A stretch of 32,000 nt of DNA from assembly GCA_963704705.1 (NCBI GenBank), contig OY969931.1:750001-782000 (forward strand). Reading direction: 5' to 3'. Under the pieces are notes generated by a model that worked only from the letters and a program-made list of their open reading frames with translations, was not told the origin of the DNA and searched no databases. This stretch comes from an uncultured bacterium. GTDB lineage: Bacteria; Patescibacteriota; Gracilibacteria; UBA1369; PNNO01. The position numbers and the translations under genes were made by a program. Each line of letters starts with the position of its first letter. The first letter of the stretch is position 1. Below are positions 1,826 to 32,000 of this stretch, piece after piece.

Positions 1826-4138
1826 CTACGCCCCAAGCTGATCAAGATTCTGCTGAAATCTGTCACCAAATTTTTGAGTTGTTCTCATTACTGACTTGAA
1901 GTCGCTATAACCTCTGCGTTTTTGCCAGTCAGTAGGATGTAAGTGATTATCAAAATAATCTCTCATTTCAGATTCTGTTTCAGGTAATGGGATTCCATCT
2001 CTTAAATTTCGGATAAATGCTGCTGCTCCACCCGGTCCGTTTCTCCAGTATAAATATACCGCTCTCATCCATGATCTGCGCATTCTGCCGTCTGTTGTTC
2101 TTAATTTATCAAAAATATTATCAACAGATTCAAGTTTGCTTAAAATTCTTGAATATCTAAACATGAAAAGATTATGAGCTGCGCATCTTTCAAAAGGTGT
2201 TGCGAATTCAGGCCTTGGTGCGCTGAAATCTAATTTCATTAACATTTCAGGGTCGATTCCGTATTTTTTCAACTGACTTCTTAAAATTTTACCTCTTTTG
2301 GAATTTTCAGAATACTTTTTAAAATCCCGCCAAACCGAATTAAGTATTTGATATTCTCCTGCTGCTGTAGAAAGTGCCACTTCCCTTGTTCCGCCTTTTT
2401 TTCTGCTATTAAAATCATAAGGATTGTAATTGGATTCAACTCTTAAAACTGCGTCGTTAAGCGCAATAAAATAATTCCAGTCTTTTTTCTTAAGGCCAAC
2501 CATTTGTGCAGAATATTTAAGTGCGTCCATTAATTTATATTTTTGCTGCATTATATCCATTCTTTGCTTTATATCCATTTTTCCAATTGCATATGCTTCC
2601 CTTCTGGCTGAGGTATACCAATCATTTTCTTCTTTTGTTAATCTGTAACCCATTCTAATTGCAAAAGGCGTACTGCCCCGAGCTACCATGTCTCTTTTTG
2701 AAGCATCCGGTAAATTAGCAGCGGACTCCGGAGGTTTTGATTTTGGTTTTGGTTTTGGTTCAGTATCAGGTAAAGAATCGTCAACTTGAGTTGGCTTGTG
2801 AATCGCTGTAACAGGCATATTTTTAAAATTGTATACTCTTATTTTTTGTCCTCCTCCGGTGTTACTGAACCAGCTTGCAATTCGTGCTTTTCGTGCAGGT
2901 TTATCTACCCAGCCTAAAAATATTCCGCTGTGGTTACCAGCATAATCATATTTATTTCTGTTGTTAATCCATACCCAATCCCCTACTTCTAAATTATCAA
3001 GCATTTTATCTGATGCATGTTTGCCTTCAATTCTGCAATCATATCTACTAGGGTCAGTTTCTGGCTTCCAGCCTTTTGATTTATCACCATTAACAAATGC
3101 ATAATCTAAATTCTGATATATGGTCTGTTTTCTTTTAACCCCGGCAATTGCATATACTCTGTCCACCCAGTCACCACAATGTCTCGCACCAATATTGTTT
3201 TCTGGTTTTGTAAGATATTCAACAACTTTTTTAATTCTTTCCTGCGCGGAAAGTCCTTCTAAACTTCCGATTTTTTCTCTAATTGCAATGATTTGTTCAC
3301 GTGAAACAGATGGTCTTTTTGTTACGAATGACCAATTCTTGTTTTGCTTATCAAGATAATTGCTGTCTTCCTTTGAATATTTTGATTTATCATATTTTTC
3401 ATATGATTTTTCATTTATTTCTTTATATTTATTGCCTTCTTTTTCCCTGAACTGCTCTTTAAATTCGGGATTTGAATTTTCAAATTCAAAAACATCGCCA
3501 GTATGAATGGCCATGTAACCCTGATTATCATAAAATCCGCGTTTTGCTTTATTTTGACCTTTCAGTCCTATTCGTCTGGCACTCATTCTCTTGAGATTTT
3601 CTCTGCCACCCTCATACTTTGTTACTTTTCGCATAGTAATAGAAAGCATATCAGCAAGCCCCCATTTATCTTCAGCTTCACTATTACCTAAAAAATTCAT
3701 TTTGTATTTTGTTTTTTCTTTAAATTTTGAATAAATTGCATCGCTTGACCAATTTTTAATATCCAATTTATCCGCATCATTCATATTCGTTGTAAAAGCA
3801 GCTAAAGTTAAGCCCGGATATTTATCCTCAAGCTTTTCAATCAAACTAATTGGTGCTGATTTAATTCTTTCTCTTAATTTTTTTACTGAATCGATTCCTT
3901 CGGAAAACATTTCCACATTCATATTCTGACGTAAAGCACCAACCAAATCTTTAGCTTTGTCTTTAAGTTTATCTTTTGCATCCTGATATTTTTTATCAAG
4001 TTTGGCTTTTTTATCTTCTTTTGTTTCAGGTGCAACTTGAGGTGCATTCGCGCCGGATTCAGGTGTTCGTGTAACATCGGGTTTTTTGGAACCCTTCACA
4101 TCATAAACTAACTTGTTTTCAGCAAAATATATTTTCAT
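1826..4138 (-). CDS. Large two-domain putative peptidoglycan hydrolase (NlpC/P60-like cysteine peptidase plus SLT-like lytic transglycosylase). No signal peptide.
   Basis: 770 aa. The central region has HCGDWV ... GDWVWI ... GNHSGIFLGW, matching the Cys/His spacing of NlpC/P60 or CHAP folds. A PKPKPKSKPP linker follows. The C-terminal region has ESNYNP ... AGEYQIL ... YWRNGPGG, matching SLT motifs ES / GLMQ / AYNxGxG. The N-terminal ~320 aa are K/E-rich with no recognisable domain, no TM segment and no signal peptide. Confidence 0.6.
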   Translation of the reverse strand: MKIYFAENKLVYDVKGSKKPDVTRTPESGANAPQVAPETKEDKKAKLDKKYQDAKDKLKDKAKDLVGALRQNMNVEMFSEGIDSVKKLRERIKSAPISLIEKLEDKYPGLTLAAFTTNMNDADKLDIKNWSSDAIYSKFKEKTKYKMNFLGNSEAEDKWGLADMLSITMRKVTKYEGGRENLKRMSARRIGLKGQNKAKRGFYDNQGYMAIHTGDVFEFENSNPEFKEQFREKEGNKYKEINEKSYEKYDKSKYSKEDSNYLDKQNKNWSFVTKRPSVSREQIIAIREKIGSLEGLSAQERIKKVVEYLTKPENNIGARHCGDWVDRVYAIAGVKRKQTIYQNLDYAFVNGDKSKGWKPETDPSRYDCRIEGKHASDKMLDNLEVGDWVWINNRNKYDYAGNHSGIFLGWVDKPARKARIASWFSNTGGGQKIRVYNFKNMPVTAIHKPTQVDDSLPDTEPKPKPKSKPPESAANLPDASKRDMVARGSTPFAIRMGYRLTKEENDWYTSARREAYAIGKMDIKQRMDIMQQKYKLMDALKYSAQMVGLKKKDWNYFIALNDAVLRVESNYNPYDFNSRKKGGTREVALSTAAGEYQILNSVWRDFKKYSENSKRGKILRSQLKKYGIDPEMLMKLDFSAPRPEFATPFERCAAHNLFMFRYSRILSKLESVDNIFDKLRTTDGRMRRSWMRAVYLYWRNGPGGAAAFIRNLRDGIPLPETESEMRDYFDNHLHPTDWQKRRGYSDFKSVMRTTQKFGDRFQQNLDQLGA

Positions 4139-13689: not shown

Positions 13690-15504
13690 CTAATCATCAC
13701 GTTTTAAAATAGACATGAAAGCTTCCTGTGGAATATCCACATTACCTACTTTTTTCATGCGTTTTTTTCCTTCTTTCTGCTTTTTTAACAATTTATCTTT
13801 TCTTGTACGGTCACCTCCATATAATTTTGCGGTTACGTCTTTTCTTAATGCTTTAATTGTTTCTCTTGCAATGATTTTTGCTCCAATTGCAGCCTGAATC
13901 GGCACCTCAAACTGAGTTCGTGGTATTAATTTTTTTAATTTTTTAACAATTGATACTCCTGTATGATAAGCTTCATCTCTATGAACTATTACCGATAAGG
14001 CTTCGACAACTTTTCCTCCGACCAAAATATCCAGTTTAACAAGATTTTCAGCCCTATATTCAAAGAAATCATAATTCATTGATGCATAACCTGAAGTTCC
14101 GCTTTTTAAGGCATCATAAAAATCAACTACAATTGAAGCCAAAGGTATTTCAAAAGTAATTATTACGCGATCCTGATCAATATATTGCATATTCTTATTT
14201 AATCCCCTTCTTTCCTGAACTAATTTCATAACAACGCCAACATATTCTTTTGGAGTAACAACTTCCAGTTTCATCCACGGCTCTTTAATTGCTGTTAATT
14301 TAGCTGGATCAGGAAGCTGGGCAGGACTTGAAATAAACTGCTCTGTTCCGTCAACAACAACAACAATATAAGATACAGAAGGTGAAGTAATAATTAAATT
14401 CAGATCATATTCACGTTCAAGTCTTTCCTGAACAATTTCCATATGCAGCATACCTAAAAATCCGCATCTAAAACCAAATCCAAGAGCACCTGACTGTTCA
14501 GGCTCAAAAGATAACGCGGAATCATTAATCTGAAGTTTTTCAAGTGCATCGCGAAGTAATGGATAATCGTCCCCATCAACACAAAAAATGCCAGCAAACA
14601 CATAAGGTTTTACAATATTATAACCTGCTAAAGGTTTTGCACTATTTAAATCAACTTTTTGCCTGCCCGGATGCCAGATTGTATCACCAACACGAGCCTC
14701 GGCAACTGTTTTAAGCCCAGTTACAATATAACCAACCTCACCTGGATTCAATTCTGTTGAAGGCTGATATTGAGGCCTAAAATATCCACATTCCATTACT
14801 TCAATCTCTTTTTTGGTATGAAGTAGATGTACTCTATCACCTCTTTTAATTCCCCCGCTCATTACACGTACATAAGCCACAACTCCTTTGTAGGTATCGT
14901 AAACTGAATCAAAAATTAAAGCTTTGAATTCATCATCTTTTGTTGATTCTGCAGGAGGCGGAACTTTTTGAATAACTGCCTCTAGAACTTTTTCAATATT
15001 TGTACCTTCTTTTGCAGAAACAGCAATTATTTCTTCTTTTGGAATTCCCAATGCACTTTCTATTTCTGATGAAACTTTCTCAACATCTGATGAAGGTAAA
15101 TCAATTTTATTTAAAACAGGTATGATTTCAAGATTATGATCAATTGCCATATAACAATTTGCAAGGGTTTGAGCTTGAATTCCCTGAGTTGCATCAACAA
15201 TTAAAATAGCGCCTTCACAAGCTGCTAAACTGCGTGAAACTTCATAGCTAAAATCAACATGCCCCGGAGTATCAATCAAATTTAAAATATATTCATCTCC
15301 TTCATAATTCCAATTCATTTTTACTGGCTGAAGCTTAATGGTTATGCCTCTTTCCTGTTCAATATCCATTGTATCCAAATGCTGTCCATGTTTCATATCA
15401 CGTTTATTAACAGTATTCGTTACTTCAAGAAAACGATCAGCTAATGTTGATTTTCCGTGATCAATATGCGCAATAATACAGAAATTTCGAATATTTTGTA
15501 TAAT
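13690..15504 (-). CDS. lepA: Elongation factor 4 (LepA), with 5' end extended beyond the track ORF and a probable non-canonical start
   Basis: The track ORF starts at an internal Met (15396). The same frame continues upstream as [35 protein letters not shown], which is the G1 P-loop. An in-frame stop lies at 15552-15550. There is no ATG, GTG or TTG between that stop and the P-loop. ATT at 15504 and ATA at 15501 align with the E. coli LepA N-terminus MKNIRNF. Confidence 0.85.
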
Positions 15505-15581
15505 TTTTTTATTCAGCTGTTTCTTTATTAAAATATATCTTGGGAGATTCTATCAAAACAATGATACTTTGTAAATCATTC

Positions 15582-15610
15582 TTGAATTATAAGCCAAATT
15601 TTGATATAAT
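15582..15610 (+). promoter_or_regulatory. Strong sigma70-type promoter of the PrgI-like operon
   Basis: TTGAAT (15582-15587), 17-nt spacer, TGaTATAAT (15602-15610), about 32 nt upstream of the ATG at 15642. Confidence 0.6.
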
Positions 15611-15641
15611 AGTATGAATATAAAATAAAACAAAAAAGCTA

Positions 15642-16106
15642 ATGCAAGCGATGGTACCTCAAAATGTACAAGTTGCAGATAAAATAGTTGGTCCGCTCAC
15701 ACTTCGTCACATGATAATAATAGGAGCTGGTGGCGGGCTTGCGTATCTTGTTTATGTAATACTTGCAAGAAGTTATTATTGGGAAGTTTGGCTGCCACCT
15801 GTTGCTATTATTTCGACAATAACATTGCTAGTAGCTTTTTTAAAAATTTATAATCTGCCTTTTGGAAAATTTTTTATATTATTAATGGAATTTATTTTTG
15901 TTCCTAGAAAAAGAGCATGGGTAAAAAACAGCGGAGAAATTTTCGGTAAAAAACACATTATTGCAAAAGACACACATGAAAAAGAAAAAAAGATAATAAA
16001 AGGTGAAAAAGCTCAACAGACTTTAAAGAAAATTGACGATATCAGCCAAATCCTTGATACATACGGCAAGGAAGCACACAAATCAGCACTTAATAAACAA
16101 AAATAA
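15642..16106 (+). CDS. PrgI-family-like small membrane protein (type IV secretion associated in Gram-positive conjugation systems)
   Basis: The N-terminus VPQNVQVADKIVGPLTLRHMIIIGAGGGLAYLVYVIL matches the characteristic PrgI-family opening (vPq...eDKI.GpLTlRq followed by two TM helices). The C-terminal tail is K/E-rich. Confidence 0.6.
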   Translation: MQAMVPQNVQVADKIVGPLTLRHMIIIGAGGGLAYLVYVILARSYYWEVWLPPVAIISTITLLVAFLKIYNLPFGKFFILLMEFIFVPRKRAWVKNSGEIFGKKHIIAKDTHEKEKKIIKGEKAQQTLKKIDDISQILDTYGKEAHKSALNKQK

Positions 16107-16912
16107 TGGCACAGGACACAAAAATCAAAGCAAATGATAAAGCAATAAAAAAGGCAAACAAAGCAGCTGCAATATCAAGTTCGCAGCTATATATGAAAAT
16201 CGCTGAAATACGTGATGATACAGTTGTGTTAAAAAGCGGCGGTATAAGAGGAATTTTGAAGGTTTCAAGTATAAACTTTAATTTGAAATCTGATGATGAA
16301 CAAAATGCAATTATTTATTCATATCAGGGATTCATCAACTCTCTTGAATTCCCTATTCAAATTGTAATCAGATCAAAAAAACTTGATATAGATAATTATA
16401 TCGATCAATTAAACGACATTGGTGAAAAACAAACAAATGACCTGCTTCAAAGACAAACTTATGAATATATCGATTATATCCAACGTCTCATTGAGTTTGC
16501 GGATATTATGGAAAAGGAGTTTTTGGTAATAGTGCCTTTTGATCCATTTAGATCGGTTAAACCAAATGTACTGCAAAGATTTTTTCAAAATCTTTCACCA
16601 AAAGACACACTTGCAGAATTCTCTAAAAGAAATAAAGAATTTGCAAATTTAAAAAAGAATCTAAATCAAAGAATGAATGTTGTTAAATCTGGATTGCAAA
16701 ATACTGGTCTGCAGGTTGAACAACTCAAAACCAAAGATTTAATCGGTTTATTCTACGAAATATATAATCCCATAACATCAAGAACTCAAAAATTTGAAGA
16801 TATCACAGAAACAAATCTACGAATTGACTCCGATGTTTTGGATGAAGCTACCCGCAATGAAATCGGCAGTGATGAAGACGAAGAAGCAACATCAGGTGAA
16901 AATGTAGGATAA
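16106..16912 (+). CDS. Stand-alone protein resembling the N-terminal domain of Gram-positive VirB4/PrgJ-type T4SS ATPases. No ATPase domain.
   Basis: IAEIRDDTVVLKSGGIRGILKVSSINFNLKSDDEQNAIIYSYQGFINSLEFPIQIVIRSKKLDID ... LIGLFYEIYNP follows the pattern remembered for VirB4 N-domains (IK.I.dG.i.t.dg.y..ilev..iNF.LkS..Eq..ii..f...l......qi). There is no Walker A or B motif. It ends in an acidic tail. Its ATG overlaps the upstream stop (TAATG at 16104-16108). Confidence 0.5.
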   Translation: MAQDTKIKANDKAIKKANKAAAISSSQLYMKIAEIRDDTVVLKSGGIRGILKVSSINFNLKSDDEQNAIIYSYQGFINSLEFPIQIVIRSKKLDIDNYIDQLNDIGEKQTNDLLQRQTYEYIDYIQRLIEFADIMEKEFLVIVPFDPFRSVKPNVLQRFFQNLSPKDTLAEFSKRNKEFANLKKNLNQRMNVVKSGLQNTGLQVEQLKTKDLIGLFYEIYNPITSRTQKFEDITETNLRIDSDVLDEATRNEIGSDEDEEATSGENVG

Positions 16913-16920
16913 CTAATAAT

Positions 16921-17265
16921 ATGAATCCGTTAGATAATTTTAAATATGAACATGTTGATGAAGAAAACTTAATACCTCAAGGTTGGTATAAGGTTTTTGT
17001 TTCATTTACGGACAGATCAGGTAAAAACGTAGAGTTACAATTAGATAATATTAAAATTGATGAAGGAGAAACAATAGATAAACTTCAAAAACAAGCAAAA
17101 TCTGAAGCAAGTTCAGCTGGTTTACATAATTTTGGTATGGATGTTTATTATAAAAGATTTCCAAATGGTCATCCTGTAAAATTTCGATTAGAACATGAAA
17201 AAACAGAGCAAACATTTAAATTTACTGAGTTTTATGATGCAAATGGTTATCCTGTAAATAAATAA
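16921..17265 (+). CDS. Hypothetical soluble protein, third gene of the PrgI-like operon
   Basis: 114-aa ORF, 8 nt after the preceding gene, with no recognisable motif. The stop lies 5 nt from the 3' end of the convergent 5S rRNA. Confidence 0.5.
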   Translation: MNPLDNFKYEHVDEENLIPQGWYKVFVSFTDRSGKNVELQLDNIKIDEGETIDKLQKQAKSEASSAGLHNFGMDVYYKRFPNGHPVKFRLEHEKTEQTFKFTEFYDANGYPVNK

Positions 17266-17270
17266 AAACC

Positions 17271-17394
<124 letters not shown>

Positions 17395-17444
17395 AGCTTT
17401 TAATTATAAAGGAGCAAATGTAATATTTGTCCGATTGTTATTCG

Positions 17445-17547
17445 TACAAATTGCTAGTCATTACGACCTAAACAAGTATCGATACCTAGTCTCTTACAAG
17501 CATGCGACTAAGTATCAACACCTGAATTAGGTCGAAAGTAAGTTCAA
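17445..17547 (-). other. 23S 3' trailer: 3' arm of the precursor processing helix, with an inserted branch hairpin
   Basis: 17445-17461 is the perfect reverse complement of 20577-20593 (17 bp). 17536-17547 is the perfect reverse complement of 20565-20576 (12 bp). Between them, 17464-17470 (CGACCTA) pairs with 17528-17534 (TAGGTCG). Confidence 0.7.

Positions 17548-20562
<3,015 letters not shown>

Positions 20563-30695: not shown

Positions 30696-32000
<1,305 letters not shown>

Follow-up and report, generated by a model that had tools for sequence, protein, structure and literature searches.

The stretch of DNA analyzed here, hereafter the window, comprises 32,000 nucleotides (nt) from an uncultured bacterium of the class Gracilibacteria (Patescibacteriota). 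It contains three consecutive open reading frames (ORFs) between lepA and the 5S end of a ribosomal RNA (rRNA) operon. We identify the first two (genes 1 and 2) as prgI and trsD, candidate parts of a type IV secretion system (T4SS), and refer to the third as gene 3. The locus is composed as follows:

15582-15610, forward strand: putative sigma-70-type promoter of prgI-trsD (best site in the scan, and conserved)
15642-16106, forward strand: prgI, 154 amino acids (aa), an ORF ending in TAA (Pfam PF12666)
16106-16912, forward strand: trsD, 268 aa, an ORF ending in TAA (Pfam PF26593 "TraC-like"; predicted soluble, without ATPase domain)
16921-17265, forward strand: gene 3, 114 aa, an ORF ending in TAA (strain-specific, between trsD and the 5S gene)

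A preliminary description of this DNA had already placed the three ORFs at these positions, with prgI and trsD sharing one A in a TAATG overlap and 8 nt separating trsD from gene 3, all of which we recover; the distance from the gene 3 stop to the 5S rRNA, given there as 5 nt, is 9 nt when the Rfam boundary is used. The operon thus runs convergent into the 3' end of the rRNA operon. The promoter proposed at the time, TTGAAT-N17-TGaTATAAT, is also present, with TTGAAT at 15582-15587, a 17-nt spacer, TG at 15602-15603 and TATAAT at 15605-15610, and is the top-scoring site. Promoter-like sites in this AT-rich window occur at chance level (11, vs. 10.7 expected from shuffled sequence), so the site owes its credibility not to the scan score but to its conservation in relatives: in an alignment of the window with three related loci (L004, L005, and L006), TTGAA, the spacing and TGnTATAAT are invariant and the flanks vary. 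We conclude that prgI and trsD have a predicted extended -10 promoter, conserved and divergent from lepA, from which both are transcribed.

The product of gene 1 exceeds the threshold of the Pfam PrgI family (PF12666; E 1.7e-8, 35.3 bits, gathering score 27), with residues 5-92 spanning model positions 2-90 of 91. Two hydrophobic segments, at approximately 23-45 and 49-87, are apparent in hydropathy windows above 1.6. In all seven relatives' loci a PrgI ortholog immediately precedes trsD, and the ratio of nonsynonymous to synonymous substitution rates (dN/dS) of prgI toward the closest relative is 0.046. Gene 1 is thus a predicted PrgI/VirB3-like membrane protein with two transmembrane helices, and the hidden Markov model (HMM) search bears out its initial recognition as PrgI-like. 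The neighboring gene is trsD and not virB4; no VirB4 ATPase is found in the 32-kb window.

Several lines of evidence relate gene 2 to the N-terminus of VirB4. In the NCBIfam collection it matches positions 92-218 of VirB4_plasma, the 894-position model of VirB4 from mycoplasma integrative and conjugative elements (E 2e-11), and it weakly matches other VirB4 models at their extreme N-termini. The precomputed annotation of this exact protein, as well as of all the best 120 of its 707 homologs, is PF26593 "TraC-like". The protein has no transmembrane segment, and no P-loop or Walker A/B family (AAA_10, P-loop_TraG) was detected in the Pfam and NCBIfam scans; without an ATPase domain, gene 2 is therefore part of a VirB4 and not a VirB4. 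We next compared an AlphaFold 2 (AF2) model of the protein (31 homologs in the alignment; mean predicted local distance difference test score, pLDDT, of 68, with a core of 70-88) with the PDB using Foldseek, and the top 14 matches were all TrwK, the VirB4 of R388 (best E 3e-4, probability 0.99-1.00, around 200 aligned columns). Searches of PDB sequences with the gene 2 sequence and a TrsD profile returned chance matches only. In agreement with the N-domain identity originally suggested for it, and now supported by HMM and structure searches, gene 2 is best read as TrsD, a stand-alone soluble protein corresponding to the VirB4 N-terminal domain. As a separate observation, residues 42-105 (window 16229-16420) match positions 3-66 of 555 of phrog_2666, labeled "terminase large subunit" (E 9e-9); this family is probably a VirB4/TraC-like one within PHROGs, rather than a sign of kinship with terminases.

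The gene appears intact in its short form. The best 120 of the 707 homologs are all stand-alone proteins of 235-281 aa, 58-93% identical to gene 2, and those with a named source come from Peregrinibacteria, Gracilibacteria or Patescibacteria. An exhaustive search yielded 2188 clusters at 50% identity, with 149 of the 150 listed falling below 450 aa. The dN/dS of trsD toward the closest relative is 0.045 (0.07-0.08 for lepA), and an independent Logan assembly encodes an identical gene 2 protein. Moreover, tblastn with four VirB4 proteins found no ATPase remnant in the 32-kb window. Judged from these sequence comparisons, prgI and trsD are under strong purifying selection (dN/dS around 0.045). 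The stand-alone homologs, the low dN/dS, the lack of an ATPase remnant and the identical Logan protein together exclude truncation, frameshift and assembly artifact.

How TrsD relates to the VirB4 proteins of other Patescibacteria becomes clear from the parts of the profile models that each protein covers:

TrsD proteins: VirB4_plasma 92-303 of 894
Unfused VirB4 P0384, 598 aa: VirB4_plasma 292-892; CD1110 180-734 of 752; VirB4_CagE 238-726 of 792
Peregrinibacteria-type VirB4 P0425, core (residues 385-952): VirB4_plasma 292-889
Natural fusion P0235: VirB4_plasma 92-893, in one stretch

The fusion P0235 (898 aa) is the sole long protein among the listed clusters of the exhaustive search and consists of a TrsD domain, a Pro/Ala-rich linker and VirB4. 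It does not stand alone, given that TrsD-VirB4 fusions (P0235 and P0271-P0340) form a conserved family of about 850-910 aa, from Berkelbacteria or Saccharimonadales where a source is named. Since TrsD and the short VirB4 cover complementary parts of the models and the fusions span both, TrsD plus a short VirB4 (a core of around 600 aa) is, by profile collinearity, equivalent to one canonical VirB4. We also considered whether TrsD could be a paralog of the N-terminal region that the short VirB4 retains, and rejected this: hhalign comparisons of narrow and broad TrsD profiles with VirB4 profiles detected no similarity (probability below 1%), and the NCBIfam coordinates are complementary. The hhalign result is what would be expected of complementary pieces that are not paralogs.

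To locate the ATPase, we scanned one genome per species with a VirB4 profile and obtained 80 patescibacterial virB4 loci. In 75 of these, virB4 is immediately preceded by a TrsD homolog with 33-48% identity to gene 2, and a PrgI homolog precedes that TrsD in 64 of the 80, so the canonical order is prgI-trsD-virB4. The exceptions with enough flanking sequence, L022 (labeled Peribacteria), L023 and L025, led to the VirB4 family of the window lineage. On one ENA contig of a relative, NODE_107 (122,750 bp), prgI-trsD (approximately 45,974-47,169) and the gene for a 977-aa VirB4 (81,336-84,269) are 34 kb apart, and at such a distance virB4 would in any case fall outside a 32-kb window. In three further genomes the longest contigs given for TrsD and for VirB4 agree in length (1,493,843, 254,700, and 125,028 bp), and the first of these was confirmed to carry VirB4. 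Both virB4 loci of this lineage that were inspected place the gene between gyrA and an S41 peptidase gene, with gyrB nearby. More specifically, at these sites (L090, 7198-19246; L094, 7256-19269) virB4 diverges from gyrA, and downstream of it come genes for the S41 peptidase, which has SLH and PDZ domains, then for a protein of 749-821 aa, then gyrB. Small ORFs beside virB4 in L090 were considered as VirB2-like pilins and discarded, being hydrophilic on inspection.

The VirB4 proteins of the unlinked lineage (P0390-P0509; L090, 10001-12934; L094, 10001-12820) carry a long low-complexity N-terminal extension, with a median of 274 residues before the conserved DLIAPS motif, in contrast to 50 in other unfused patescibacterial VirB4. 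An aPxP[DE]WLkKA motif (aP[LMIV]P[DE]W[LI]kKA) recurs in this extension in 42 clusters out of 120 and is missing from all 49 other VirB4. Of the options initially raised for gene 2, a split VirB4 with its ATPase half elsewhere is the one that gains support, from the profile collinearity, the fusions and the distant VirB4 core on the same contig in relatives.

The syntenic composition of the locus was then examined. The flanking features in the window are:

15547-15575, reverse strand: promoter-like site for lepA (TTTACA, 17-nt spacer, TG-TAGAAT), found by scan and conserved in the alignment
13690-15510, reverse strand: lepA, divergent neighbor and boundary of the locus (translation; Pfam domains of the identical gene in L001)
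17275-17389, reverse strand: 5S rRNA, convergent with the operon and boundary of the locus (Rfam RF00001, 89.3 bits)
17548-20561, reverse strand: 23S rRNA (Rfam)

Seven relatives' loci, with TrsD 59-95% identical, share one order: the genes for serine hydroxymethyltransferase (SHMT), a HAMP-SpoIIE protein, an SBP_bac_5 protein and LepA occupy the same strand, prgI and trsD follow on the opposite strand, and the 5S-23S end of the rRNA operon comes last. The preliminary description had envisaged that relatives might show a contiguous full-length VirB4 here; instead, they show the same stand-alone trsD. No relaxase, coupling protein or integrase gene is found in the 32-kb window. From its gene order, prgI-trsD occupies a fixed chromosomal site between lepA and 5S, and is not a mobile element.

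In contrast to this constancy, the slot between trsD and 5S is variable. It is empty in L092 (where about 20 nt separate the trsD stop from 5S), L004, L005, and L006, holds a deaminase-like gene in L007, and in L002 (10894-13678) and L088 (10947-13521) contains genes for a conserved protein of 649-726 aa and a second one of 171-186 aa. The 649-726-aa proteins of L002 and L088, which represent a higher-GC sister group, are 32% identical to each other and have no family match. Gene 3 occupies the slot in the window only. It has no match in Pfam, NCBIfam or PHROGs, as expected from its earlier description as unrecognizable, and no homolog was found in L002-L007 or in L092, despite the 95% identity of TrsD in the latter. 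A single detectable relative (47% identity) lies in L091, among genes for trigger factor, an apurinic/apyrimidinic endonuclease, MgtC and RNase P, and the cluster of gene 3 at 90% identity has a single member. Gene 3 is probably a real small gene; its distribution indicates a strain-specific insertion, not a part of the prgI-trsD module. Thus, the three-gene operon originally described holds as an ORF layout in the window strain, but not as a module that includes gene 3, which the relatives, L092 among them, do not have.

Taken together, we consider it likely that the locus represents the prgI-trsD operon of a chromosomal Patescibacteria-type T4SS with its VirB4 core encoded elsewhere. The ancestry of this system lies in the MPF-FATA class of monoderms. 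In the R388 system the N-terminal domains of VirB4 are at the membrane, contacting VirB3 and VirB8, and PrgI of pCF10 is predicted to bind PrgJ 1:1 (PMC12857230); on these grounds we propose PrgI-TrsD as the receptor for the VirB4 core. By analogy, PrgI and TrsD would assemble like VirB3 and the VirB4 N-terminal domain of R388 into a membrane-anchored platform, on which the separately encoded VirB4 core, lacking exactly the TrsD-equivalent segment, would dock in trans. Such docking would rebuild the canonical VirB3-VirB4 energizing complex and, speculatively, the long disordered N-terminal extension of the core may act as a tether. A 1:1 partnership between TrsD and VirB4 is supported by their being fused in one lineage and separate in another (a Rosetta-stone argument). 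The whole T4SS is thought to serve the epibiotic lifestyle, and not conjugation.

Some observations weigh against this interpretation. Although gene 2 matches positions 21-200 of 201 of the NCBIfam TrsD/TraD model NF041427 (E 1.8e-7), its score of 31.2 bits falls far below the curated cut-off of 200; the PF26593 assignment is a precomputed annotation only, which our local Pfam scan did not return; and the Foldseek output is silent on which part of TrwK was aligned to the gene 2 model. The AF2 model of the fusion P0235 (predicted template modeling score, pTM, of 0.44; pLDDT below 50 in the N-terminal part of VirB4) is too poor to show docking. The VirB4 of the source genome itself (a 1,374,545-bp contig) was found neither in the 32-kb window nor among the 20 candidate clusters checked. 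Finally, with respect to the completeness of the machine, a recent survey reports VirB6 homologs as absent or undetectable in Gracilibacteria (PMC12102498).

In an alternative scenario, PrgI-TrsD became an ATPase-independent membrane module in the window lineage, for example a platform for other partners, a possibility also listed in the preliminary description. This would account for the pair having its own conserved promoter and its own chromosomal site, and it is in line with the unlinking from virB4, which holds for each of the seven relatives' loci that have the lepA-rRNA context and is also reported in the literature (PMC12102498), with the variable slot just downstream of trsD and with the same failure to detect VirB6. 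Nevertheless, the same genomes keep a VirB4 core still devoid of exactly the TrsD-equivalent segment, the fusions found elsewhere show that both parts act as one protein, and TrsD conservation is continuous across linked and unlinked lineages (33-48% identity). With the incomplete core retained in relatives, we do not favor such a module and regard it as unlikely.

TrsD could otherwise be a regulator or assembly chaperone that mimics the VirB4 N-domain and controls the number of VirB4 protomers engaging PrgI/VirB3, in which case it would not be a stoichiometric structural part. A VirB4-like fold without ATPase domain fits this idea, as do the pairing of R388 VirB4 protomers via their N-terminal domains (PMC12857230) and the transcription of trsD apart from virB4 in the window lineage. 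However, a short VirB4 without the whole segment implies that TrsD complements VirB4 and does not compete with it, a view shared by the null hhalign comparison with the retained VirB4 part, and the stable fusions imply 1:1 stoichiometry; a regulatory role is therefore less probable still. The first descriptions of PrgI and TrsD came from conjugative plasmids (pCF10, pGO1), which brings to mind the remnant of a plasmid or of an integrated conjugative element. This is highly improbable given the housekeeping flanks (SHMT, lepA, rRNA operon), whose order is maintained in relatives with TrsD identities of 59-95%, the lack of relaxase, coupling protein and integrase genes in the window, and the rarity of relaxases in Patescibacteria (PMC12102498). 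Lastly, an origin of gene 2 by truncation or frameshift of a VirB4 (as a pseudogene, through misassembly or, as once entertained, as a remnant cut off by rearrangement at the rRNA locus) might be suggested by the gene 2 end 362 nt from the 5S gene and the missing ATPase domain, but has practically no probability in view of the uniformly short homologs (235-281 aa in the best 120 of 707; below 450 aa in all but one of 150 listed among 2188 clusters), the same trsD endpoint in the seven syntenic relatives' loci, the dN/dS of 0.045, the identical Logan protein and the absence of ATPase-coding remnants from the window.

Returning to the split VirB4 with its two parts at separate loci, a bolder extension can be put forward, although only tentatively and as one that we doubt. 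VirB4 of Peregrinibacteria/Gracilibacteria could be a trans-assembled two-locus enzyme whose assembly is itself a control point, with PrgI-TrsD, under a separate promoter next to the rRNA operon, as the membrane receptor, which the VirB4 core would find via its aPxP[DE]WLkKA motifs; or, more radically, PrgI-TrsD could have a role independent of VirB4. Under the latter possibility, the variable slot after trsD could be a site for co-expressing accessory or cargo genes.

The separation of the two genes from virB4 has a precedent. Quinonero-Coronel et al. (2025, PMC12102498) had described the unlinking of TrsD and PrgI from virB4 in Gracilibacteria. In that survey, TrsD ranks first in abundance among the T4SS components of Patescibacteria and is remotely homologous to the VirB4 N-terminus; trsD is usually near virB4, "with the notable exception" of the class Gracilibacteria, in which only 4.7% of the VirB3/PrgI homologs are near virB4; and both TrsD and PrgI figure among the proteins listed as essential in Southlakia epibionticum. 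The prgI-trsD locus is therefore an instance of a published pattern, and its arrangement is the one expected for its lineage. The statement that VirB4 is a single polypeptide, made at the outset, likewise gives way, as pGO1 encodes TrsD, known to be a stand-alone protein akin to the N-terminal part of VirB4 (PMC12102498, citing PMC4027160). The survey passages that record the absence of VirB3-VirB4 fusions make no mention of TrsD-VirB4 fusions; the section of its supplementary tables that was covered contains no names with Peregrini-, Peribacter-, Absconditabacteria or Abawacabacteria. What we add is the explicit argument from TrsD/short-VirB4 collinearity, direct same-contig evidence for a distant VirB4 ATPase, and the constant position between lepA and the rRNA operon together with the conservation of the promoter; we also show that the third gene is adventitious.

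Genetics places the T4SS among the few systems that a patescibacterium has been shown to require for epibiotic growth. In this context, TrsD represents the N-terminal segment that the short patescibacterial VirB4 lacks, whether fused to it, adjacent, or tens of kb or more away, and gains a concrete role that can be put to the test, as the adaptor by which the motor would bind VirB3. For annotation, a PrgI/TrsD pair without a neighboring ATPase should not be equated with a degraded system.

Further observations concern the surroundings of the locus. The lepA frame is open for about 37 codons upstream of its first ATG, at 15397-15510 on the reverse strand, with the GTPase P-loop included in this segment; no ATG, GTG or TTG precedes the P-loop, and the start may be non-canonical, at an in-frame CTG, ATT or ATA codon. 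LepA in the public calls for the source strain has 568 aa, vs. 604-622 aa in relatives. An alternative genetic code with UGA as Gly, prompted by this start, was rejected, as housekeeping ORFs are full length under code 11 and lepA is open in frame upstream of the ATG. The rRNA operon is interrupted, with 16S (30696-32000, reverse strand) and a tRNA-Ala some 10 kb from 23S-5S (17275-20561, reverse strand). The gap holds, on the forward strand, a Wzy_C O-antigen-ligase-like gene, two MacB/FtsX permeases, an ABC ATPase and an HlyD/MacA-like adaptor, and a tRNA-Ile lies between; the adaptor/ABC/MacB block after 23S is also present in relatives L004 and L005. Public protein calls inside the 23S rRNA are spurious (L006, 11804-12286 and 13442-13981; window, 18208-18687 and 19867-20229), and "match" at 71-85% between genomes only because the rRNA itself is conserved.

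A 770-aa ORF of the window (1826-4138, reverse strand) lacks a Walker A motif and gave no hit in Pfam, NCBIfam, PHROGs or the PDB sequences. On visual inspection, its C-terminal "ESNYNP...AAGEYQI" recalls lytic transglycosylases and its middle "HCGDWV...HSGIFLGW" recalls NlpC/P60-type peptidases, a combination that would be VirB1-like. This ORF and the 726-aa gene after trsD in L002 were considered as a divergent VirB4 or VirB1 and set aside; the former lacks a Walker A motif and any profile or PDB match, and the two proteins are unrelated to each other.

Comparison with known systems places the locus among several relatives. One is the Patescibacteria-type T4SS (Quinonero-Coronel et al. 2025, PMC12102498), including the essential locus of Southlakia epibionticum ML1, with which it shares the PrgI/VirB3, TrsD and short VirB4 families, a chromosomal and relaxase-free setting and the explicitly reported gracilibacterial unlinking; it differs in that most classes have prgI-trsD-virB4 (75 of 80 loci), whereas the pair in the window is alone between lepA and 5S. 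TrsD/TraD of pGO1/pSK41 (NCBIfam NF041427; pGO1 subclass of MPF-FATA) is likewise stand-alone, of about 200-270 aa, remotely homologous to the VirB4 N-terminus and encoded after a VirB3-like gene. In contrast, the window gene is chromosomal, has no virB4 next to it and shows weak similarity (31 bits vs. 200). PrgI of pCF10 and VirB3 (TrwM of R388) resemble the window PrgI in being small, with two transmembrane helices, and in having a gene directly before, and overlapping, that for the VirB4 N-terminus; however, the partner gene in the window encodes the VirB4 N-terminal domain only, and its PrgI has an extra Lys/Glu-rich C-terminal tail of around 60 residues. Finally, TrsD plus the short core is collinear with full-length VirB4 (TrwK of R388, the CD1110 family and VirB4 of mycoplasma integrative and conjugative elements) and with the Berkelbacteria fusions, and the gene 2 model matches TrwK. 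Unlike all of these, the window lineage has the N-terminal domain and the ATPase core as separate genes at separate loci.

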